Under the pieces are notes generated by a model. That model was not told the origin of the DNA and made no database searches. It saw nothing but the letters and a program-made list of their open reading frames with translations. This document shows, piece by piece, positions 41,574 to 64,000 of a DNA stretch of 64,000 nt. How positions within the stretch are numbered: the stretch's first letter is position 1; each line of letters starts with the position of its first letter. The translations under genes and the position numbers were made by a program. Source of the DNA: Patescibacteria group bacterium (GTDB lineage: Bacteria; Patescibacteriota; Saccharimonadia; Saccharimonadales; Saccharimonadaceae); NCBI GenBank assembly GCA_020160975.1, contig JAIUPJ010000001.1, positions 907,551-971,550 of the forward strand, given 5' to 3'.

Positions 41574-41652
41574 CTGATATTGAAGAGGGCACCCTCTCCA
41601 GAGATTTCTCTCCGGAGGGGTGCCCTCGTGTCGCCAGTGGCGACGAGTTGAG

Positions 41653-43641
41653 TCAGGCCTCGTTGCTCGCTTCCGCAGAGCTCGGGGTCGACTCGGTGGT
41701 GCCTTGCGGCTTGCTGGTCGTGGCCTGAGCCACGAGCAGCTGCAGCAGCTCGAGCAGGTTGCCACCACCACCGCCGCCCGTGATGAGGGTCTGCGGCATG
41801 TACGGCGTCTGGCTCTTGCTCAGTGCATCGACGACGGCCACGGCAGCGGTCTGACCCGCACCGATGGCGTCACGCTGCGCCTGGTATCCAGCCGCCTGGC
41901 CCTCACCGAGGGCTCGGGCGGCGGAGCCGTTGGCTTCACCGATGGCACGGATCTTGGCAGCCTCACCGGCACCGAGCTCCTCCAGGACCTTGCGGTCACC
42001 GGTCGCCTTGGCCACGGCAGCTTCGGCGTTCGCCCTGTTGATCTCGACCGAGACCTGGGCGGCGGCCTTCTGCTGCTGCATGTCAGCCTGACCCTTCATC
42101 GCCTCCATGTCGATGCGCGCGTTCTCGGCGTCCTTCTGGGCGCCGTACGTCTGCTTCTTCTGGTTGGCGATTTCTCGGGTTCTGAGAACCTCGGCGAGGT
42201 CATCGGGAAGTCTGACGTCCTGGATGTAGACGCCGCGCACCTCGACGAAGTACTCGTTGAGGTACTCCTTGATGTACTCGGTGGCCTTCTGCTGAACGCT
42301 GCTGCGGGTCTGGATGAAGTCCGTTGCCGCAAGCTTGGAGAGCGTGTCGCGGAAGTAGTTGCCAACCGCGGCCTGAAGGACCTCGTTCACCAACTTGGCG
42401 ATCGACTCCACCGACCCGATCACCTTGGCGGCGTTCGTGTCGGGGATGTGGATCTGGACTTGCAGTTCGATCGCGAACTCGAACGCGTCGTTCGACTTCG
42501 CAACGATGGTGCTGAGCTCCCTGTCGAGGCCGTGCTCGGACTCGACGTTGTCGGCCCAGTTGAGCTGCAGGATGCTGGTGGGGACGATGATCGGCTGGTA
42601 GATGGTCTGGTTGAGACCCTTCTTGCTGGTGCGGATCACATCCGACCAGATGCCTTCGTGACCGGGTGCCACGATGGATCCGAACTTGTACGTCTCACCG
42701 GACTTGTCCTCAGTCGGCAGGCCGACGTACGCCTTGATGACCGCGACCTGGCCCTGCTCGACCACCAGCATGGGCTGGAGGTCGACCTTGAACAGGAAGG
42801 GGTTGATGGCGTAGTCACCCGAACGCAGCACGTCATGCTGAAGGCCTCGGCGGCCTCCCGCATCCAGGAACGCCTGGGCGTCCTGGTAGTTGTTGTGCAG
42901 TGCGTTGTGGTCGCCGAGCACCGTCTGGATGACCTCATTCGAGGAAGCGTTGGACGCCTCCAACGAGCGGATGTCATCGAAGCTACCGATGCGGCCGGCA
43001 ATCGTTCCCGGCTCGAGCGGCGGACCGTCGAGCGCGGTGAGGATGCCAACCTGGTCGGTGGGGATGGTGACGTAGTGCAGGTCCTTGCTCTGTGCGAGCT
43101 GAACCATCTGCTCGGCGTCACGGTTGACGGGTCGCCCATAGGTACCGTTGACCGTCACCACGATGAAGGCATCGGGGTGGATGGTGTAGGTACCCGGGGT
43201 GAGCACGTGACGCTGGACGCCCTGCTGGCCACCGTTGTCGACGAAGGACTTGACGTCCTGAAAGTTGCCGTACTCGGGCTTGTAGGCCGCGCTCGTCGCT
43301 CCCGTCGGAATCGGTGCTCCCACCTGGGAGATGACGATGCCGAAGGTCTTGTCCGGGATGCTGATGATCGGCACCTTGCGGTTGCTGAACATCGGCCACA
43401 GACGAAGGTGAGGGCCGGTCGCGAGGGCACCTGGCTGGATGCCGTTCTCGCCGTTGAGCGCGATGAAGCCGTTGTTTTCGAGCGACTTCCCGCCGAAGTT
43501 CTTCGTGAGAAAGGCGTTGTAGCCCTCACGTACGAACATGAAGCTCTTCGCGAAGACGAACAGGACGATGAGAACGACCAGTCCGATCACGATGAGCATC
43601 GGTGAGATGCTGATACCAAAGGGCACGAGAGTTCCTTTCAC
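41653..43641 (-). CDS. flotillin-like SPFH/band-7 protein (FloT/YqiK type)
   Basis: 662 aa. N-terminal TM, SPFH domain, Ala/Glu-rich flotillin repeats and a Gly-rich C-terminus. The gene is about 65% GC, against about 50% for its neighbours. Confidence 0.85.
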   Translation of the reverse strand: MKGTLVPFGISISPMLIVIGLVVLIVLFVFAKSFMFVREGYNAFLTKNFGGKSLENNGFIALNGENGIQPGALATGPHLRLWPMFSNRKVPIISIPDKTFGIVISQVGAPIPTGATSAAYKPEYGNFQDVKSFVDNGGQQGVQRHVLTPGTYTIHPDAFIVVTVNGTYGRPVNRDAEQMVQLAQSKDLHYVTIPTDQVGILTALDGPPLEPGTIAGRIGSFDDIRSLEASNASSNEVIQTVLGDHNALHNNYQDAQAFLDAGGRRGLQHDVLRSGDYAINPFLFKVDLQPMLVVEQGQVAVIKAYVGLPTEDKSGETYKFGSIVAPGHEGIWSDVIRTSKKGLNQTIYQPIIVPTSILQLNWADNVESEHGLDRELSTIVAKSNDAFEFAIELQVQIHIPDTNAAKVIGSVESIAKLVNEVLQAAVGNYFRDTLSKLAATDFIQTRSSVQQKATEYIKEYLNEYFVEVRGVYIQDVRLPDDLAEVLRTREIANQKKQTYGAQKDAENARIDMEAMKGQADMQQQKAAAQVSVEINRANAEAAVAKATGDRKVLEELGAGEAAKIRAIGEANGSAARALGEGQAAGYQAQRDAIGAGQTAAVAVVDALSKSQTPYMPQTLITGGGGGGNLLELLQLLVAQATTSKPQGTTESTPSSAEASNEA

Positions 43642-43741
43642 TCTACGTTGGGTGTCGGGATTGACACTGAAAATAAATTATAGCATTCTTTTCTAAATTA
43701 TGCAATTTTATGTCACAGAATAAATATGAAATATACGTAAA

Positions 43742-43768
43742 TTAGCACTCGCACTTGACGAGTGCTAA
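43742..43768 (+). promoter_or_regulatory. CIRCE element (HrcA operator), a perfect match to the consensus
   Basis: TTAGCACTC-gcacttgac-GAGTGCTAA read directly: 9-bp inverted repeat with a 9-nt spacer, identical to the CIRCE consensus TTAGCACTC-N9-GAGTGCTAA. Confidence 0.85.
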
Positions 43769-43784
43769 TTTGTGCGTTAAAATC
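43756..43784 (+). promoter_or_regulatory. sigma70-type promoter for clpC (TTGACG-N17-TAAAAT) overlapping the CIRCE
   Basis: ttgacg agtgctaatttgtgcgt taaaat. The -35 lies inside the right arm of the CIRCE. GGAGGG RBS at 43817-22 and ATG at 43831. Confidence 0.5.
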
Positions 43785-43830
43785 AGAGGTGACGTGGGCG
43801 ATTAATGCCCAGAAACGGAGGGCAATTACT

Positions 43831-46302
43831 ATGATGCCAGAAGATTTTGCAGAGTTTATTTCACACCTATCTGATAATGCCAAGATGAGCGTGCAGCACG
43901 CTGACGCCATCGCGCGTGGCAACGGCAGCAACTATATTGGCACTGAACACCTGTTGCTGGGCGTGCTTGCACAAGGTTCGAGTGCAGGTGCAAAAGTCAT
44001 GGCAGATGCCGGAGTGACATTGGCAAAGGCTGAGCAACTACTAGACATTAAGCCGACGCAGATTGTCGTGAGCACTGGCGCCGTAGGCCTCAGTGACACC
44101 GCATTGCTGACGCTGCGTATGGGCTGGGAGACCGCCAAAGAGTTTAATCACGAGCACCTAGGCACCGAACATATTCTTTACAGCCTACTTCGCCAGAACA
44201 CGGCGCGTGCAACTACATTGCTACGCGATGAGATGAATATCGATATCGATGATGTCGTGAGTGAATTGGAGAGTTACTTTGACCGCATCCGTGGCGAACA
44301 TGGTGATGTCGCAACTGAGCCAAAGACACGTCCGGTCAAAGGTGGTGCGTTGAGTACATTCGGGATTGATTTGACTGCTAAAGCATTGACTGGTGAGCTC
44401 GATGCGATGATTGGCCGCGCCAAAGAAACTGAACGACTAGTGACAGTTCTAAGTCGCCGCACGAAGAACAACCCGGTGCTGATTGGGGAGCCAGGGGTTG
44501 GTAAAACAGCTATCGTAGAAGGGCTCGCGCAACGAATTGTGCACGAAGAAGTGCCCGATCACCTGCTCGACAAGCGGGTGATCATGCTTGATATGGCCGC
44601 GATGATCGCTGGTACAAAGTATCGCGGTGAGTTTGAAGATCGTCTCAAAAAAGTTGTCAATGAAATCAAGAAATCGGGCAATACGATTGTCTTCATCGAC
44701 GAATTACACCTTCTTGTGGGCGCGGGGGCTGCCGAGGGTAGCATGGATGCGGCCAATATCTTGAAGCCAGCCCTAGCACGCGGCGAGCTGCATATGATCG
44801 GCGCGACTACGCTGGATGAGTATCGCAAGTATATCGAAAAAGACACTGCGCTTGAAAGGCGATTCCAGACAATTATCGTTAAGGAACCAAGTCTCAAAGA
44901 GACGCTCGGTATTTTAAAGGGCTTGAAGGGTTACTATGAAAAGCATCACGGTGTGGCGATGAGCGATGATATCCTCGAAGCGGCCGTGTACATGAGTGAT
45001 CGCTACGTGGCGGATCGGTTCATGCCGGACAAAGCGATCGATGTGATTGATGAAGCCGCGGCGTTAGTGCGAGTCAAACAAGGGCACAAGCCAAGCAAGC
45101 AGCGCGAGTTACTCAAGGAGCTCAAAAACCTTAACGAGCGTATGGAAGAGGCTGTGGCGGCTGAAGACTATGAACGAGCAGCGCTCTACAAGCAGCGCGT
45201 TAGCCAGATCCAAGAAAAACTGGAAGTGGTCCGCGAGACACAAGAGCGAAAGGATGCAATTGCCCTGAGCGAGGACGACATCTCGCATGCTATCGCTGTC
45301 ATGACAAATATTCCTGCAGAAAAGGTGAAAACCAACGAAGCGGCGCTCCTAAAAACACTCGAGAAACAACTCGCTAAGTACGTGATTGGCCAGGAAGAAG
45401 CGGTCACAAAAGTAGCAAAAGCGATTCGCCGCAGCCGTAGCGGGGTGGCTAGCGAAAAGCGACCGATCGGTAGCTTTGTATTTATGGGTCCAACTGGGGT
45501 TGGTAAAACAGAGCTAGCGCGGGTCTTAGCTCGAGAGGTATTTGGAAGTGCCGATGCCTTGATCAAAATTGACATGAGTGAGTTTGGCGAAAAGCACACG
45601 ACCAGCCGACTAATCGGTGCGCCTGCAGGCTATGTGGGATATGAAGACGGCGGCAAGCTGACCGATAAAGTGCGACGCCAGCCATATAGTGTGATTTTGT
45701 TTGATGAGATCGAAAAAGCACATCCTGAGGTGTTTCAGTTGATGCTACAGCTACTTGAAGACGGCACATTGACAGATGCAAAAGGTCGCGCGGTGAGTTT
45801 TCGCAACACCATAATCATCATGACGAGCAATCTCGGTGCCGATAAGATGATGAAAGAATCGACACTTGGATTTGGTGGTACGACCAGTGAAAGTAAGCTA
45901 GAAGACATCCATGCTCGCAACGCCCGCGCGACGCAAGAAGAGTTGGAAAAGTTTATGCGCCCAGAGCTCATTAATCGTCTAGACGGCGTCGTCACTTTCC
46001 GGGCCTTGACTCGCCCTGAAGTCGGGAAGATATTTGATCTACTGGTCGAAGAGCTTCGCCAGAGGCTGGTGCGACAAAGTATCGGCATTCACGTGACGCC
46101 TGCAGCCAAAAAGTATTTGATCGGCAAGGGGTACAGTACGAAATTTGGCGCTCGTCCACTGAGGCGGACAATTGAGGACGAACTAGAGCATCGCATTGCT
46201 GAGGGAATATTGGGTTCTGAGTACCAAAAAGGCGCTATACTAGAAGTACGAATCGACAAGGGAGTGCTCCAGATTGAACCAAGAAACGAATCTGACAAGT
46301 AA
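43831..46302 (+). CDS. clpC: ATP-dependent Clp protease ATP-binding subunit ClpC (class III AAA+ chaperone)
   Basis: Two Clp-N repeats, two AAA+ modules (GEPGVGKT; GPTGVGKT), and a UVR motif between them. The track ORF starts at 43762, but RBS and promoter support 43831 (MMPEDF...). Confidence 0.9.
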
Positions 46303-47308
46303 TACCACCGTAGTAGCACCGCCACCGCGGCGCAAGAATTATATGTGGCGTGCTGTCCTATCGGCTGCCGCAGTGCTGGTGTTGTCTGGGTGTGGGATCC
46401 TGTATGGGCAGCAGGTTGTCGATGCTATAAAAGCTAGGTTGTATCATCCGACAGGGCAGATTGAGAGCGTCACCACGCGTCTTCAGTTGACCGACAGAGG
46501 TAGAGATATCTTCTATGCCACCAACCCTTTGGTTGAGTCAAAACAAGAGTTCAATAACAATTGCCAAAGCGAGGAACGTACAGTCGCAATCTTGGGCTGC
46601 TACTACCGTGATCGCGTGTATTTGTACGCTATTGCCAACGAAAAGCTCGACGGCACACTAGAGGTCACAGCAGCGCACGAGATGCTGCATGCGGCATACC
46701 AGCGGTTGAACTTTTTTGAACGAGCACGAGTTGACCAATTGATAAAAACGCAATATGCCGCGCTGAAAGACGACGCTTCTCTGAAAGAGATTATGCAGTA
46801 TTATCAGCAAGCGGAACCGGGGGCTGAGATCAACGAGCTCCACTCGATCCTTGGCACTACTGTGGCAACACTTGATCCCGAACTCGAGCAGTACTACAAT
46901 CGCTATTTTGGTGACCGGGCATCAATAGTGGCGCTTAATGCAACGTACAACAAAGTGTTTGGTGACATCAAAAAGCAAACCGATGAACTGGAAGCTCGCA
47001 TCAAGGTTACCGAGACGAGCCTCAAGGCAGACCTCGGGGTATACGAGGTCGACAGGCGACAGGTTGAGCTGGATATCAGCAACTTTAATGAGCAAGCAAG
47101 CACCGGTGCATTTGCGACACGTAGTGCATTTAATGCCGCGCGTAGTGCGCTAGTAGCTCGTGTGGATGCGCTAAACACGCGCCGTGATGAGATTAATCAG
47201 CGAGTGGCGGCCTACAACGCAGATGTGGCGGCGATCAATAAACTGGCAGTACAAGCGAGTGATCTCTATAAGAGTATCAATGGTGCTGAGACGACGACGG
47301 GCGTGTAG
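46274..47308 (+). CDS. hypothetical lipoprotein-like protein with an HExxH motif and a C-terminal coiled coil
   Basis: 344 aa. N-terminal hydrophobic segment ending LSGCG (lipobox-like). AAHEMLHAAY motif. Sits between clpC and radA. Confidence 0.5.
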   Translation: MNQETNLTSNTTVVAPPPRRKNYMWRAVLSAAAVLVLSGCGILYGQQVVDAIKARLYHPTGQIESVTTRLQLTDRGRDIFYATNPLVESKQEFNNNCQSEERTVAILGCYYRDRVYLYAIANEKLDGTLEVTAAHEMLHAAYQRLNFFERARVDQLIKTQYAALKDDASLKEIMQYYQQAEPGAEINELHSILGTTVATLDPELEQYYNRYFGDRASIVALNATYNKVFGDIKKQTDELEARIKVTETSLKADLGVYEVDRRQVELDISNFNEQASTGAFATRSAFNAARSALVARVDALNTRRDEINQRVAAYNADVAAINKLAVQASDLYKSINGAETTTGV

Positions 47309-47310
47309 AG

Positions 47311-48663
47311 ATGGCAAAAGCAAAGTCACGTTTCGTTTGTCAACAATGCGGTGCGAGTTTTCCTAAATGGACCGGCAAATGTGAGAATTGCGGCGAGTGG
47401 AACAGCCTCGTCGAGCAAGTAATCGCCTCGACAGGCAACTCGGTTGTGGCGCGGAGTTCGCATAGCGGCAAACTACTCGTGCCTCAGACGATGCGCTCGA
47501 TCAGTGCCGAAGCATCGACCGCGCGACTTACAACTGGTATCGGGGACTTAGACCTCGTACTTGGAGGTGGAGTCTTGCCGGGCGGGGTTATTCTCCTTGC
47601 AGGCCAGCCGGGAATTGGTAAGTCGACGTTACTGTTGCAGGTTGCAGCATCAATCGCTGCAAAACACACAGTGCTCTATGCAAGCGGTGAAGAAAGCGCT
47701 AGTCAAGTCAAATTGCGAGCGGCGCGGCTGGGAGCAGAAGCGGGTGATGATTTGCATTTTGTGGCCAGCACCAGCGCCGATGACATCGCCGCAACGATTC
47801 GCAGCGGTACGTATTCGCTCGTCATTATCGATAGTATCCAGACGCTAAGTCTTGATGAAATTTCGAGCGCACCGGGAACGGTTAGTCAGATTACCAACTC
47901 CTCGAATGTGATTATCCGAGCTGCAAAAGAATCAGGTGCGGCAGTCATACTGGTAGGGCATGTGACCAAGGAGGGTTCAATTGCCGGCCCGAAAGTGCTC
48001 GAGCATTTAGTGGATGTCGTCTTGCAGTTCGAGGGCGACCGCTACGGCGGGTTCAAAGTAGTACGCGCGATCAAAAACCGCTATGGCTCAACCAGTGAGG
48101 CTGCGATCTTTGAAATGGGTGAGCGAGGGCTTGAATTGGTGGAAAATCCCTCGGCAGCGCTGCTTGCGGAACGGCAAATTACTGACGGGTCGGTGGTGCT
48201 GGCGACGCTTGAAGGCAATCGGCCTATTCTGGTAGAAATTCAAGCACTTGTCAATCACACGAATTTCGGGTATCCTAAAAGAACAGCAAGTGGGTTCGAT
48301 CTCAACCGACTTAATCTCCTCATCGCGGTGCTGGAGAGGCGCACCAAACTGAATTTATCGGATAAAGATATCTATATCAATGTCGTGGGAGGACTTAAGC
48401 TTGCTGATCCAGCTGCCGATTTGGCGGTGGCTATGGCGATTGCTAGCGCTGCCGCTGGTCGCAAATTAGGTGATGAACTAGTGGTGTTTGGTGAGGTAGG
48501 TTTGGGAGGCGAAATTCGTTCGGCACAGCTGGCCGACAAACGTATCGCTGAGGCCAAGAAACTTGGGTTCACCAGGGCAATTGCTCCTGCAGGAGGCAGA
48601 AAAGATTCATTTATAACAGGCGTGCGCGACTTGCGACACGCATTAATCGACTACCTGAAGTAA
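47311..48663 (+). CDS. radA: DNA repair protein RadA/Sms
   Basis: 450 aa. N-terminal C4 zinc finger (CQQCG...CENCGEW), RecA-like Walker A (GQPGIGKST) and a Lon-like C-terminal domain. Confidence 0.95.
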   Translation: MAKAKSRFVCQQCGASFPKWTGKCENCGEWNSLVEQVIASTGNSVVARSSHSGKLLVPQTMRSISAEASTARLTTGIGDLDLVLGGGVLPGGVILLAGQPGIGKSTLLLQVAASIAAKHTVLYASGEESASQVKLRAARLGAEAGDDLHFVASTSADDIAATIRSGTYSLVIIDSIQTLSLDEISSAPGTVSQITNSSNVIIRAAKESGAAVILVGHVTKEGSIAGPKVLEHLVDVVLQFEGDRYGGFKVVRAIKNRYGSTSEAAIFEMGERGLELVENPSAALLAERQITDGSVVLATLEGNRPILVEIQALVNHTNFGYPKRTASGFDLNRLNLLIAVLERRTKLNLSDKDIYINVVGGLKLADPAADLAVAMAIASAAAGRKLGDELVVFGEVGLGGEIRSAQLADKRIAEAKKLGFTRAIAPAGGRKDSFITGVRDLRHALIDYLK

Positions 48664-48707: not shown

Positions 48708-49694
48708 ATGCACCTCACTGAGTGGGCTCCTGGTATCTATCGAAAGGAACGTATGGAAACAAAAGACATTATATTACTTGCTGTGACACTGCTGATACTT
48801 GGCGAAGTCACATATTTGTTGGCACGATTGCCAAAAACGTCAATTAAAGCTAAGGATCGTGCTGTGTTAGTCGATACCTCGGTGCTGATGGATGGGCGCA
48901 TCACTGCTCTAGCACGAACAGGATTTATCGGCGGGACGCTGGTAATTCCACGAAGTGTGGTTGGTGAGCTGCAGTTTTTGGCTGACAATGCAGACGCTGA
49001 CAAGCGCGCCCGTGCGCGGCACGGACTCGATATCGTGACAGAATTGCAGCATATGCCCGAAGTAGAAGTAGAATTGCTACAGGATGGTAGCCGTGCCACT
49101 GAAGGCGTGGATGAGCGGCTGCTTGCACTCGCTAAGAAGCACCAGGCGGTTATTTGTACGCTTGACTATAATCTCAACAAGGTTGCGGTTGTAGAGGGCA
49201 TCACGGTACTCAATATCAATGAGCTGGCGCAGGCGCTTCGCATGGCGCACTTGCCTGGTGAGGAATTGATGATCGAGGTCGTGCAAAAAGGTCAAGACAG
49301 CCATCAAGGCGTGGGGTACCTTCCTGACGGCACGATGGTAGTGGTTGAACAAGCGAATAAGCTGATCGGACAAGCAGTACAGGTTGAGATTGTTCGCAGC
49401 CTCCAGACCGCTGCCGGCAAGATGATGTTTGCAAAGAGAGTTGGCGTTAAGCCAGTAGCTACCCAGGGAACAGCCGTGCTCAAGGCGGCCGTTTCATCGA
49501 CGGGCGGAAGAAAGCAGGCGCAGACCACGCAACGTCAGAATTCGACTGAGCCCGAGAAACACGGACAGCAGAACCGCCGCACAAATGATACACCGAAACG
49601 CGCCTCTCAGCGACGAGCGTATCATGCCCAGCCAAAGCGGCAGAGCAGAGATCGTGAGGATGCACTGCTCGATCTCGTGAATAACCAGAAGTAA
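48708..49694 (+). CDS. PIN and TRAM domain protein (YacL-like)
   Basis: N-terminal TM, PIN domain (AVLVDTSVLMDGR) and C-terminal TRAM. An alternative start is the Met at 48756. Confidence 0.8.
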   Translation: MHLTEWAPGIYRKERMETKDIILLAVTLLILGEVTYLLARLPKTSIKAKDRAVLVDTSVLMDGRITALARTGFIGGTLVIPRSVVGELQFLADNADADKRARARHGLDIVTELQHMPEVEVELLQDGSRATEGVDERLLALAKKHQAVICTLDYNLNKVAVVEGITVLNINELAQALRMAHLPGEELMIEVVQKGQDSHQGVGYLPDGTMVVVEQANKLIGQAVQVEIVRSLQTAAGKMMFAKRVGVKPVATQGTAVLKAAVSSTGGRKQAQTTQRQNSTEPEKHGQQNRRTNDTPKRASQRRAYHAQPKRQSRDREDALLDLVNNQK

Positions 49695-49707: not shown

Positions 49708-49731
49708 CCCCTCCGTAGAGGGGTTATTTTT
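49708..49731 (+). terminator. bidirectional intrinsic terminator between yacL and the PBP gene
   Basis: cccctc cgta gagggg followed by ttattttt; A-run on the other side. Confidence 0.6.
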
Positions 49732-61818: not shown

Positions 61819-62182
61819 GATGCCTTCTAGTATAGCGTAGTAGGAGGTGATACCTAAAAAAGACGAGCATACACTCGTCTCTTTACTCTGAAATGGTTCG
61901 GATAGGAGGACTTGGTCGCGGTTACGCCACACCGAAAGTCAAGCAAGTGAGCTTAGCTCATTTGTGAAGTTTCCTTGCAAAGCTACCTCGAGTCACTTCT
62001 CACCTCCACGACGTGTCGATTCGAGTTCTTAAATTGATACCATCGAAAAATTTGAGTACTATGGCGGAAAATCGTTCTAAACGAAACAGAAGCCGGGGAG
62101 GTCGGCACCATGCTCACTACCTATAATTCAGCTTTTAATGCATTCAGTTATATAAAAGCATATATCTCTAGTGTGAATGTAT

Positions 62183-62211
62183 TGACAACCCCAACCATAA
62201 CCATAATAATG
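62183..62211 (+). promoter_or_regulatory. candidate promoter (TTGACA-N17-AATAAT) for the repeat-protein gene
   Basis: ttgaca accccaaccataaccat aataat. GGGAG RBS at about 62264 and ATG at 62278. Confidence 0.35.
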
Positions 62212-62277
62212 AAAAGCAATTGTTTGATGCGAGCAAACAAAAAGTGAGAGACAACTAAATAGAGGGAGTAGAAGTGC

Positions 62278-64000
62278 ATGACAGCGCTCGCATCCAAGTT
62301 CGGGGTGAATACTAAAAAGCATACACAGGCCAAATTGTGGCAACGCATAGCAACGCTACTGACAGCGTTTGTTCTGATGGGTAGCGCGCTGGCGCAGATC
62401 GCACAGGCGGCGCCAGGTGATTACGTGTGGCAGAAGGCGGAGACGAATCTGATCGGAGACCAGAGCAACTGGTACTCCATCGCTAGCTCCAGCGACGGCA
62501 GCAAGCTCGCCGCGGTCGTGTCGGGCGGCTTCATCTACACCTCATCCGACTCCGGTGCCACCTGGACGGAGCAAACCGCCGCCGGCTCGCGTTACTGGCA
62601 ATCCATCGCTAGCTCCAGCGACGGCACGAAGCTCGCCGCGGTCGAATCAGAGTGGAACGGCACCAACTATGTCGGCTCCGTCTACACCTCATCCGACTCC
62701 GGCGCCACCTGGACGGAGCGCACCGCCGCCGGCTCGCGTAGCTGGTACTCCATCGCCAGCTCCAGCGACGGCACGAAGCTCGCCGCGGTTGACTATGGCG
62801 GCTTCGTCTACACCTCATCCGATTCCGGTGCCACCTGGACGGAGCAAACCGCCGCCGGCTCGCGTTACTGGTACTCCATTGCCAGCTCTAGCGACGGCAG
62901 CAAGCTCGCCGCGGTCGTGTCGGGCGGCTCCGTCTACACCTCATCCGATTCCGGTGCCACCTGGACGGAGCAAACCGCCGCCGGCTCGCGTAGCTGGTAC
63001 TCCATCGCTAGCTCCAGCGACGGCAGCAAGCTCACTGCGGTCGTGTCGTACGGCTCTGTCTACACCTCATCCGACTCTGGCGCCACATGGACGGAGCGCA
63101 CCGCCGCCGGTCCGGGTAGCTGGTACTCCATCGCCAGCTCTAGCGACGGCACGAAGCTCGCCGCGGTCGCCTACGGCGGCTCCCTCTACACCTCATCCGA
63201 TTCTGGTGCTACCTGGACGGAGCGCACCGCCGGCGGCTCGCGTAACTGGCGATCCATCGCTAGCTCCAGCGACGGCACGAAACTCGCCGCGGTCGAGTCG
63301 GGCGGCTCCCTCTACACCTCATCCGATTCTGGTGCTACCTGGACGGAGCGCACCGCCGGCGGCTCGCGTTACTGGTCCTCCATCGCCAGCTCCAGCGACG
63401 GCAGCAAGCTCGCCGCGGTCGTTTTGGGCGGCTCCGTCTACACCTCATCCGACTCTGGCGCCACCTGGACGGAGCGCACCGCCGCCGGCTCGCGTTACTG
63501 GTCCTCCATCGCCAGCTCCAGCGACGGCAGCAAGCTCGCGGCGGTCGAATCGGGCGGCTCCGTCTACACCTCATCCGACTCCGGCGCCACCTGGACGGAG
63601 CGCACCGCCGCCGGCTCGCGTAACTGGTCCTCCATCGCCAGCTCTAGCGACGGCAGTAAGCTGGTCGCGGCGGTCGCCTACGGCGGCTCCCTCTACACCT
63701 CATCCGATTCTGGTGTTACCTGGACGGAGCGCACCGCCGCCGGCTCACGTGACTGGTACTCCATCGCCAGCTCCAGCGACGGCAGCAAGCTCGCCGCGGT
63801 CGTTTGGGGCGGCTCCGTCTACACTTCGTCCGATTCCGGCGCCACTTGGACGGAGCAAACCGTCGCCGGCTCGCGTGACTGGTACTCCATCGCCAGCTCC
63901 AGCGACGGCAGCAAGCTCGCCGCGGTCGTTTGGGGCGGCTCCGTCTACACTTCGTCCGATTCCGGCGCCACTTGGACGGAGCAAACCGTCGCCGGCTCGC
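62278..64000 (+). CDS. secreted Asp-box (BNR) repeat beta-propeller-type protein; 5' part only, continues beyond the window end
   Basis: Own translation: signal peptide MTALASKFGVNTKKHTQAKLWQRIATLLTAFVLMGSALAQIAQA|AP..., then about 12 tandem ~42-aa units, each W(Y/S)SIASSSDG(S/T)KLAAV..GG.(V/L)YTSSDSGATWTE(Q/R)TAAGSR.. and each carrying an S-x-D-x-G-x-T-W Asp box. No stop before 64000, hence absent from the ORF track. Confidence 0.75.
   Translation, partial: MTALASKFGVNTKKHTQAKLWQRIATLLTAFVLMGSALAQIAQAAPGDYVWQKAETNLIGDQSNWYSIASSSDGSKLAAVVSGGFIYTSSDSGATWTEQTAAGSRYWQSIASSSDGTKLAAVESEWNGTNYVGSVYTSSDSGATWTERTAAGSRSWYSIASSSDGTKLAAVDYGGFVYTSSDSGATWTEQTAAGSRYWYSIASSSDGSKLAAVVSGGSVYTSSDSGATWTEQTAAGSRSWYSIASSSDGSKLTAVVSYGSVYTSSDSGATWTERTAAGPGSWYSIASSSDGTKLAAVAYGGSLYTSSDSGATWTERTAGGSRNWRSIASSSDGTKLAAVESGGSLYTSSDSGATWTERTAGGSRYWSSIASSSDGSKLAAVVLGGSVYTSSDSGATWTERTAAGSRYWSSIASSSDGSKLAAVESGGSVYTSSDSGATWTERTAAGSRNWSSIASSSDGSKLVAAVAYGGSLYTSSDSGVTWTERTAAGSRDWYSIASSSDGSKLAAVVWGGSVYTSSDSGATWTEQTVAGSRDWYSIASSSDGSKLAAVVWGGSVYTSSDSGATWTEQTVAGS
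62467..64000 (+). repeat. tandem array of near-identical ~126-bp (one 150-bp) coding repeats, GC-rich
   Basis: The sequence tggtactccatcgc(t/c)agctccagcgacggca(g/c)(c/g)aagctcgccgcggtc...tacacctcatccga(c/t)tc(c/t)gg(t/c)gccacctggacggagc recurs about 12 times at >90% identity. Confidence 0.85.

Follow-up and report, generated by a model that had tools for sequence, protein, structure and literature searches.

A CIRCE operator interleaved with the predicted clpC promoter points to HrcA control of clpC in Saccharibacteria

Which regulator controls clpC in a bacterium whose clpC locus carries none of the genes of the CtsR system? The question is raised by a 64,000-nucleotide stretch of DNA (hereafter, the window) from a Patescibacteria group bacterium of the family Saccharimonadaceae (GenBank assembly GCA_020160975.1, contig JAIUPJ010000001.1, positions 907,551 to 971,550). 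In it, a gene for a ClpC-type Hsp100 ATPase is preceded by a copy of the inverted repeat that controls chaperone expression (CIRCE), the operator of the heat-shock repressor HrcA. In Firmicutes, clpC is usually regulated by CtsR (PMC6305308), and an original prediction, made from the letters of the window, proposed that HrcA appears to have taken over this role here. Comparative evidence supports that claim: the operator is conserved among relatives, the lineage has an HrcA, CIRCE occurs at the canonical HrcA targets, and no CtsR system was found. We put the probability at roughly 85% that the palindrome functions as an HrcA operator and forms part of the sigma-70-type promoter of an operon (clpC-orf344-radA-PIN/TRAM) that would be derepressed together with hrcA-grpE, dnaK, groESL, and clpP.

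Saccharibacteria and other Patescibacteria make up a large and barely characterized share of bacterial diversity, and their gene regulation is almost unknown. In the literature searched, HrcA appeared with Saccharibacteria or Patescibacteria in just two works, which do not deal with their gene regulation, and never with "candidate phyla radiation." The main text of the paper on Southlakia epibionticum, a cultivated Saccharibacterium, makes no mention of HrcA, Clp, or heat shock (PMC10633639).

The operator in the clpC promoter

A pattern scan of the window finds exactly one match to the consensus TTAGCACTC-N9-GAGTGCTAA, at 43742-43768. It has 0 mismatches (18 of 18 positions), just as the original prediction had it, and it is still the sole match when up to three mismatches are allowed (0.02 expected from shuffles). 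The element in the clpC promoter reads TTAGCACTCgcacttgacGAGTGCTAA; it lies 63 nt upstream of the ClpC-type gene and is interleaved with the predicted promoter, as the following features show.

43742 to 43768, no strand assigned: CIRCE operator TTAGCACTC-gcacttgac-GAGTGCTAA, with left arm 43742-43750, spacer 43751-43759, and right arm 43760-43768
43755 to 43760, plus strand: -35 hexamer TTGACG from the promoter scan, made up of TTGAC in the CIRCE spacer and the first base of the right arm
43778 to 43783, plus strand: -10 hexamer TAAAAT from the promoter scan, 17 nt after the -35
43817 to 43822, plus strand: Shine-Dalgarno sequence GGAGGG, read directly; GGAGG is kept ahead of the start codon in relatives
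43831 to 46302, plus strand: clpC, encoding a ClpC-type Hsp100 ATPase of 823 residues (Pfam Clp_N twice, AAA, AAA_lid_9, UVR, AAA_2, ClpB_D2-small)

Among plus-strand promoter-like sites in the region, TTGACG-17-TAAAAT is one of the two that an independent consensus scan rates best, with 10 of 12 consensus positions matched. The promoter proposed from the first reading stands, with one correction. The -35 had been placed within the right arm; in fact TTGAC occupies spacer positions 5-9 and the G alone is the right arm's first base, so that the -35 straddles spacer and arm. The right arm then takes up most of the -35/-10 spacer. From this consensus promoter, the clpC transcription start is predicted at about 43790. 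The proposed ribosome-binding site and the ATG at 43831 likewise hold up, because homologues open with M(M)PEDFA, which makes 43831, and not the GTG at 43762, the true start. The identical element occurs on five independent assemblies from one and the same organism (L001-L005), all of which encode an identical ClpC, and it is therefore not an assembly artifact.

The protein itself has the marks of a ClpC-type Hsp100: Clp_N repeats, two AAA+ modules with Walker A motifs at 219 and 553, a UVR-type middle, and an [LIV]-G-[FL] loop, here the ClpP-docking tripeptide LGF at residues 688-690. It scores under the ClpB and ClpA equivalog cutoffs.

Downstream of the predicted transcription start, single-sequence folds give a stem-loop, GGGC-gattaat-GCCC, in the 5' untranslated region (43796 to 43810, plus strand). 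Its sequence varies among close relatives (equivalents in L006-L045) while the pairing is retained, and distant relatives have a longer clpC leader with a conserved CGCTTGCGC. Neither the stem-loop nor the palindrome matches an Rfam family. The stem-loop may act as a 5' mRNA stabilizer.

Conservation among relatives

ClpC relatives in species-representative genomes (Candidatus Saccharibacteria, Saccharimonas, Saccharimonadales) are 92% to 67% identical to the ClpC of the window, which places the window in an ultrasmall, Saccharimonas-like Saccharibacterium (TM7). Our comparison set comprised the Saccharibacterial loci with a clpC upstream region (L006-L045), which represent 40 other species, or 41 with the window. 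CIRCE lies ahead of clpC in all 40, as a perfect copy in 31 and with one or two mismatches in nine, at a distance of 52 to 91 nt from the start codon (154 nt in one). Not one of the 38 non-Saccharibacterial loci returned by the same ClpC query has it.

All mismatches are transitions, limited to outer positions 1 and 3 or to the mirror positions 27 and 25, and the inner GCACTC/GAGTGC is invariant. With the loci aligned on the element, the majority base reaches a frequency of 98.2% in the arms, compared with 58.8% for the spacer and 48.8% for the 20-nt flanks. TTGAC occurs within the spacer in 41 of 41 clpC promoters, at spacer position 5 or 3, and every one of these promoters has a TAnnnT -10 located 17-18 bp after the TTGAC hexamer. 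In distant lineages TTGAC sits 2 nt further left and the -10 shifts along with it, while the arms stay fixed. This joint shift of -35 and -10 against fixed arms argues for an operator and a promoter that overlap, both functional and both under selection. Judged by these alignments, the CIRCE ahead of clpC is under strong purifying selection and is not a chance match.

One contig with a typical Saccharibacterial clpC locus (JBLMYW010000054.1), with a ClpC 78% identical to that of the window and a perfect CIRCE, is titled "Acidobacteriota bacterium MAG219"; it is probably mis-binned.

No trace of CtsR control was found at the locus. The CtsR box RGTCAAA-NAN-RGTCAAA has no match at up to three mismatches in 43600-43830, the nearest lying inside clpC at 45072. 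As the original prediction had stated, no ctsR, mcsA, or mcsB gene precedes clpC, whose upstream neighbors are a divergent Band_7/SPFH gene and then nusA; family annotation and tblastn, the latter with an approximate, unvalidated CtsR query, found none of the three upstream of clpC or in its neighborhood. In Southlakia, the annotation of the complete genome contains no K03708, K19405, K13640, or K03089 (CtsR, McsB, HspR, and RpoH) and no MerR-family entry.

The repressor and the wider regulon

Does the lineage encode the repressor that would read this operator? Southlakia, in which the order queA, nusA, clpC (SEML1_0512), hypothetical gene, radA is that of the window and ClpC has the same length (823 residues), carries SEML1_0720, a 242-residue protein assigned to KEGG K03705 (hrcA), with PF01628 and PF03444 and structural domains that match 1STZ. 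It sits in an hrcA-grpE-dnaK operon and was essential in transposon sequencing (Tn-seq), unlike clpC and clpP (Wang et al. 2023, PMC10633639 supplement).

A search seeded with Bacillus subtilis HrcA returned Bacillaceae matches only. With a Saccharibacterial seed, the HrcA of metagenome locus L307, all 8,000 of the 8,000 scored candidates had E < 1e-10. The best 120 of these are 189 to 257 residues long (median, 237) and carry PF01628 with or without PF03444, and their named sources are "Candidatus Saccharibacteria bacterium" or "Patescibacteria group bacterium"; proteins of 235 to 257 residues with both Pfam families bear NCBI names from "Candidatus Saccharibacteria." In alignment, the HrcAs of Saccharibacteria and of other candidate phyla radiation (CPR) members are about 100 central residues shorter than those of B. 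subtilis and other long forms. The missing segment is one that we take to be the inserted dimerizing domain of the Thermotoga maritima structure. The winged helix-turn-helix (wHTH) region (SSATIR.EM...HTSAGR.PTDKGYR) is well conserved, matching T. maritima HrcA (1STZ) with an E value of 3.8e-16, and the C-terminal GAF-like part is retained. An AlphaFold model built from 50 family members, of moderate confidence (predicted local distance difference test score, 69), has 1stz_A as its best PDB match (E 5.8e-6), with IclR-type regulators, sensor kinases, and isolated GAF domains ranking next. Taken together, these matches indicate that this lineage encodes an HrcA, the putative cognate repressor.

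The original prediction had also proposed looking for further CIRCE copies at groES and dnaK, and contigs of the lineage indeed have them there, as well as at hrcA and clpP. We scanned metagenomes for CIRCE with TTGAC in the spacer and obtained at least 120 loci; among the matches listed, the first downstream genes are Saccharibacteria-type clpC, short HrcA, dnaK, GroES-GroEL, ClpP, and Firmicute-type clpB and hsp20. At least 18 of the listed loci have a short HrcA (217-245 residues) followed by grpE and dnaK. The layout at L307 (gmk, CIRCE, hrcA, grpE of 154 residues, dnaK of 633 residues, dnaJ) is the Southlakia arrangement. CIRCE lies ahead of hrcA in six Saccharibacterial lineages (L307 and the L332, L340, L343, L353/354, and L355-359 groups), and the five HrcA clusters besides L307 for which context was available all have it directly 5' of hrcA, either perfect or as the symmetric variant CTAGCACTC-N9-GAGTGCTAG. 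The spacers at hrcA usually contain a -35-like hexamer.

The remaining targets follow the same plan. CIRCE stands directly before dnaK in several loci (L332, L214, L265, L275, L311, and others), one of these loci also having a short hrcA upstream; the DnaK proteins of the CIRCE-dnaK loci are 76% to 88% identical to a verified Saccharibacterial DnaK, against 54% to 71% in other lineages. At clpP, the order hisS-tig-(x)-CIRCE-clpP-(x)-rpoB is that of Southlakia SEML1_0496 to 0491. Five CIRCE-groES loci (L220, L317, L274, L287, L326) encode GroES proteins of 88 to 93 residues (89 in Southlakia) and, as in Southlakia and TM7x, have a divergent small open reading frame (ORF) and a MacB-type ABC transporter gene downstream. 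With CIRCE at clpC, hrcA, dnaK, groES, and clpP, at least five transcription units thus share the operator-in-promoter design.

Several variations on this design were seen. Seven dnaK loci (L214, L265, L275, L311, L277, L281, L293) have tandem operators, with one CIRCE over the -35 and spacer and a second CIRCE-like site, for example TTGGCACTC-N9-GAGTGCTAA, about 10 nt past the -10. In two lineages (L340, 9971-9997; L343, 9973-9999), the start codon of hrcA is directly adjoined by a weaker second CIRCE-like site. At clpP (L262, L271, L295) and hrcA (L354, L355), the ATG follows 6-9 nt past the predicted -10 with no Shine-Dalgarno sequence, and the Saccharibacterial clpP and hrcA mRNAs are probably leaderless; clpC and groES, by contrast, have 30- to 70-nt leaders with GGAGG.

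CIRCE with TTGAC in the spacer was also seen on non-Saccharibacterial contigs, ahead of genes for an RpoH-like sigma factor (L249, L251, L330) and an FmdB-type zinc-ribbon protein (L225, L229, L306) and ahead of dnaJ (L284). Among the matches listed, IMG/VR viral contigs (L092-L211) carry many perfect CIRCE sites away from chaperone genes. At least six of them (L114, L143, L153, L161, L195, L203) share the spacer CCCGAAGCA, one (L148) has three tandem copies 49 nt apart, and in another (L107) each end of the contig carries a copy. Such sites may mean that phages exploit the HrcA of their hosts.

Published expression data add circumstantial support for a shared regulon. Between two host-association phases of TM7x, log ratios were -1.38 for GroES, -1.14 for GroEL, -2.18 for DnaK, -1.34 for DnaJ, and -0.58 for GrpE, with -1.97 for RadA (TM7x_02270) and -0.71 for the adjacent Clp ATPase (TM7x_02280) (PMC10768705 supplement). 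The Clp ATPase gene and radA thus share the sign of the change seen for groES/EL, dnaK/J, and grpE.

Proposed mechanism and alternative explanations

How would such a circuit work? With the -35 placed within the operator and the -35/-10 spacer filled by the right arm, HrcA bound there should keep RNA polymerase off; a dimer of the repressor would exclude the polymerase by promoter occlusion. By analogy with the B. subtilis model (cited in PMC7737663), HrcA activity may be lost when unfolded proteins titrate GroEL/ES, and its loss would derepress the clpC operon together with hrcA-grpE, dnaK, groESL, and clpP. We infer here both the binding of HrcA and the repression, with heat or proteotoxic stress as the signal; the transcription start and the cotranscription of the downstream genes are inferred in the same way.

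Several points weigh against this picture. The promoter and the transcription start are consensus predictions. No tblastn match to hrcA, groES, groEL, dnaK, grpE, or ctsR was found in the window or in 80 clpC-relative loci, and hrcA, groES/EL, dnaK, and grpE were again not found with Saccharibacterial seeds or in flanks of about 17 kb (about 80 kb in total). Five HrcA clusters were looked up, none of them from the samples of the window organism. An HrcA in this very genome is therefore presumed from its relatives, hrcA being absent from the window and its flanks. The short HrcA is without the roughly 100 central residues of the characterized HrcAs. The groES loci are assigned to Saccharibacteria by synteny and protein length only, and not by a named genome. 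Finally, the TM7x Clp ATPase shifted less than dnaK, and in a host-association experiment rather than under heat shock.

The most serious alternative is that HrcA does bind but the regulon is a homeostatic or host-association switch, tied to chaperone load or life-cycle stage and not primarily to heat shock, with the truncated HrcA perhaps sensing something other than GroEL availability. The loss of the central segment of characterized HrcAs would suit such a switch, as would the joint movement of the putative TM7x regulon genes between the initial-encounter and recovery phases with no temperature shift, and so would the Tn-seq result in Southlakia, where hrcA is essential and clpC and clpP are not. 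Yet the classical heat-shock regulon has this same operator, wHTH recognition region, and set of targets (groESL, dnaK, grpE, Clp), and any response to chaperone load would by default cover heat. We regard this alternative as unlikely.

Far less probable is the proposal that the palindrome is an inert relic, a chance occurrence, or the site of a non-HrcA regulator, with clpC constitutive or under, for example, a CtsR-like factor. That hrcA was not seen in the window and that CtsR is the usual clpC regulator in Firmicutes (PMC6305308) are consistent with it. However, the chance expectation is negligible, no CtsR box was found, no ctsR or mcsAB is present nearby or in the Southlakia annotation, and the HrcA wHTH is conserved. 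A relic, in particular, is excluded because CIRCE has been kept while ClpC diverged down to 67% identity.

The least credible suggestion, that the palindrome is a structural element (an intrinsic terminator, an insulator separating clpC from the divergent Band_7 gene, or a hairpin acting in the transcript), draws on a terminator scan that flags it for a 14-pair stem followed by ACGTATATTT on the minus strand and a shorter stem on the plus strand, but it founders on several counts: the arm sequence itself is 98% conserved over 41 species where a structural hairpin would show covariation, no gene ends beside the palindrome on either strand and the T-run is poor, the Band_7 gene is missing from almost all relatives that keep CIRCE, the same 18 bases stand before hrcA, dnaK, groES, and clpP with no Rfam match, and no hairpin can form in the clpC mRNA because transcription is predicted to start downstream of both the left arm and the -35.

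A functional HrcA operator in the clpC promoter is therefore the reading that we carry forward, and it invites a broader proposal. In Saccharibacteria as a whole, and probably in much of the CPR/Patescibacteria, a pared-down HrcA, consisting of wHTH and GAF-like domains without the central inserted domain, may act alone as master repressor of the entire machinery of cytosolic proteostasis and may have taken in the class III (CtsR) regulon. We lean toward this proposal with some reserve. Its proposed targets are hrcA-grpE, dnaK-dnaJ, groESL, clpP, and the clpC-radA operon, with operators placed inside promoters, some of which would drive leaderless mRNAs. If true, it would be the first transcription-factor regulon defined for the phylum, and apparently the first regulon described for it at all, and it would explain the essentiality of hrcA in Southlakia. 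What is new is clpC together with clpP as a target and the phylum in which this occurs; operator, repressor family, and logic all follow the classical pattern, and no new mechanism is implied. A conserved operator-repressor pair over clpC, clpP, groESL, and dnaK is a testable circuit in organisms that have newly become genetically tractable (PMC10633639), and it could supply Saccharibacterial genetic systems with natural promoter parts that respond to stress.

The clpC operon and its neighborhood

How far would repression at this promoter reach? The genes that follow clpC are tightly packed, and the features in question are as follows.

46274 to 47308 (start possibly near 46343), plus strand: ORF of 344 codons, probably cotranscribed, whose product is an HExxH protein with a membrane or lipid anchor and a coiled-coil tail
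47311 to 48663, plus strand: radA (Pfam Zn_ribbon_LapB, AAA_25, ChlI), starting 3 nt past the preceding ORF, probably cotranscribed
48708 to 49694, plus strand: PIN/TRAM (YacL-like) gene (Pfam PIN and TRAM), probably the last gene of the operon
49708 to 49723, no strand assigned: bidirectional intrinsic terminator CCCCTCCGTAGAGGGG plus T-run, found by the terminator scan on both strands

The scan found no convincing terminator ahead of radA. A four-gene clpC-orf344-radA-PIN/TRAM operon is likely because of this tight packing and because the only strong terminator follows the PIN/TRAM gene, so that the cotranscription of radA and yacL considered in the original prediction is plausible. In the 344-residue product, a lipobox-like LSGC occurs together with HEMLH, an HExxH motif; Pfam and NCBIfam gave no family match. 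Southlakia has a gene at the same position (SEML1_0511), and TM7x has one intervening locus number (TM7x_02275). That this ORF might be a divergent HrcA was ruled out, the product being a membrane-anchored HExxH protein without an HrcA family match. Two window ORFs of about 540 residues were likewise rejected as GroEL, one being a T2SSE ATPase and the other an FAD oxidase.

On the other side of the operator, the divergent Band_7 (flotillin) gene does occupy the position described in the first reading, but the sharing of that region has no weight for regulation. The gene (41653-43641, minus strand) is GC-rich (0.58) and present only in this strain and in one relative (L018), for which reason it has the appearance of an insertion that separates nusA from clpC, and joint regulation was ruled out. 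Its likely extended -10 promoter, TGCTATAAT (43678-43686 in plus-strand coordinates), also counts against joint regulation, being more than 50 nt away from the operator. The JGI and Logan gene callers annotate a plus-strand antisense ORF (41620-43605) in place of the Band_7 gene; this ORF has no family match.

Toward the end of the window, at 62001-64000, GC content rises to 0.62, GC skew is reversed, and several independent assemblies stop nearby. The region encodes a 771-residue protein without any family in L089, and it may be variable or repeated.

Comparison with known systems

Much of what we describe matches the classical class I regulon. The consensus TTAGCACTC-N9-GAGTGCTAA is identical, a PF01628/PF03444 repressor comes first in an autoregulated hrcA-grpE-dnaK operon, and groES and dnaK are targets in Saccharibacteria too. 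Compared with B. subtilis, several differences stand out. Saccharibacterial CIRCE is also found at clpC and clpP, which in B. subtilis are class III (CtsR) genes, the operator is interleaved with the -35 and spacer, and the repressor is about 100 residues shorter. In B. subtilis, CIRCE lies downstream of the promoter, between the transcription start and the start codon.

The downstream genes recall the Firmicute ctsR-mcsA-mcsB-clpC-radA-disA-yacL cluster, as it runs in B. subtilis. The order of clpC, radA, and a PIN/TRAM yacL-like gene is shared, as is the coregulation of clpP with clpC. The window differs in that it is without ctsR, mcsA, mcsB, and the CtsR heptad repeat, its operator being CIRCE.

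The interleaved geometry is not unique to Saccharibacteria because it is also found before clpB and hsp20 on Firmicute-like contigs. In these Clostridia-type promoters, TTGAC again lies in the CIRCE spacer and the -10 past the right arm, and the ClpB proteins are 858 to 863 residues long; the organisms and the target genes are different.

Perhaps the closest parallel in lifestyle is with the Mollicutes (Mycoplasma, Spiroplasma, Acholeplasma), which are also genome reduced and host dependent and in which HrcA is the one conserved stress regulator, with CIRCE preceding chaperone genes plus the Hsp100 gene clpB and the protease gene lon (PMC5138195, PMC7737663). In both groups, some promoters have CIRCE in tandem. 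The targets differ, being clpB and lon there and clpC and clpP here, and so does the phylum, here Patescibacteria. The evidence differs as well: the Mollicute regulon is backed by heat-shock transcriptomic and depletion data, whereas the Saccharibacterial one is proposed from sequence comparison. Alongside the Mollicutes, Saccharibacteria would be an independent case in which genome reduction has left heat-shock control to HrcA alone.

Lactic acid bacteria provide a precedent for HrcA and CtsR regulons that are fluid in evolution. The two regulons partly overlap in streptococci, staphylococci have the HrcA regulon nested within that of CtsR, and clpL is HrcA regulated in Lactobacillus gasseri; in Oenococcus oeni, which has no hrcA or CIRCE, CtsR alone controls dnaK and groEL (PMC6305308, PMC3192767). 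These are Firmicutes with CtsR, while in Saccharibacteria HrcA is apparently the sole known heat-shock regulator and clpC itself is a target. Oenococcus oeni is thus the mirror image of the situation that we propose for Saccharibacteria.

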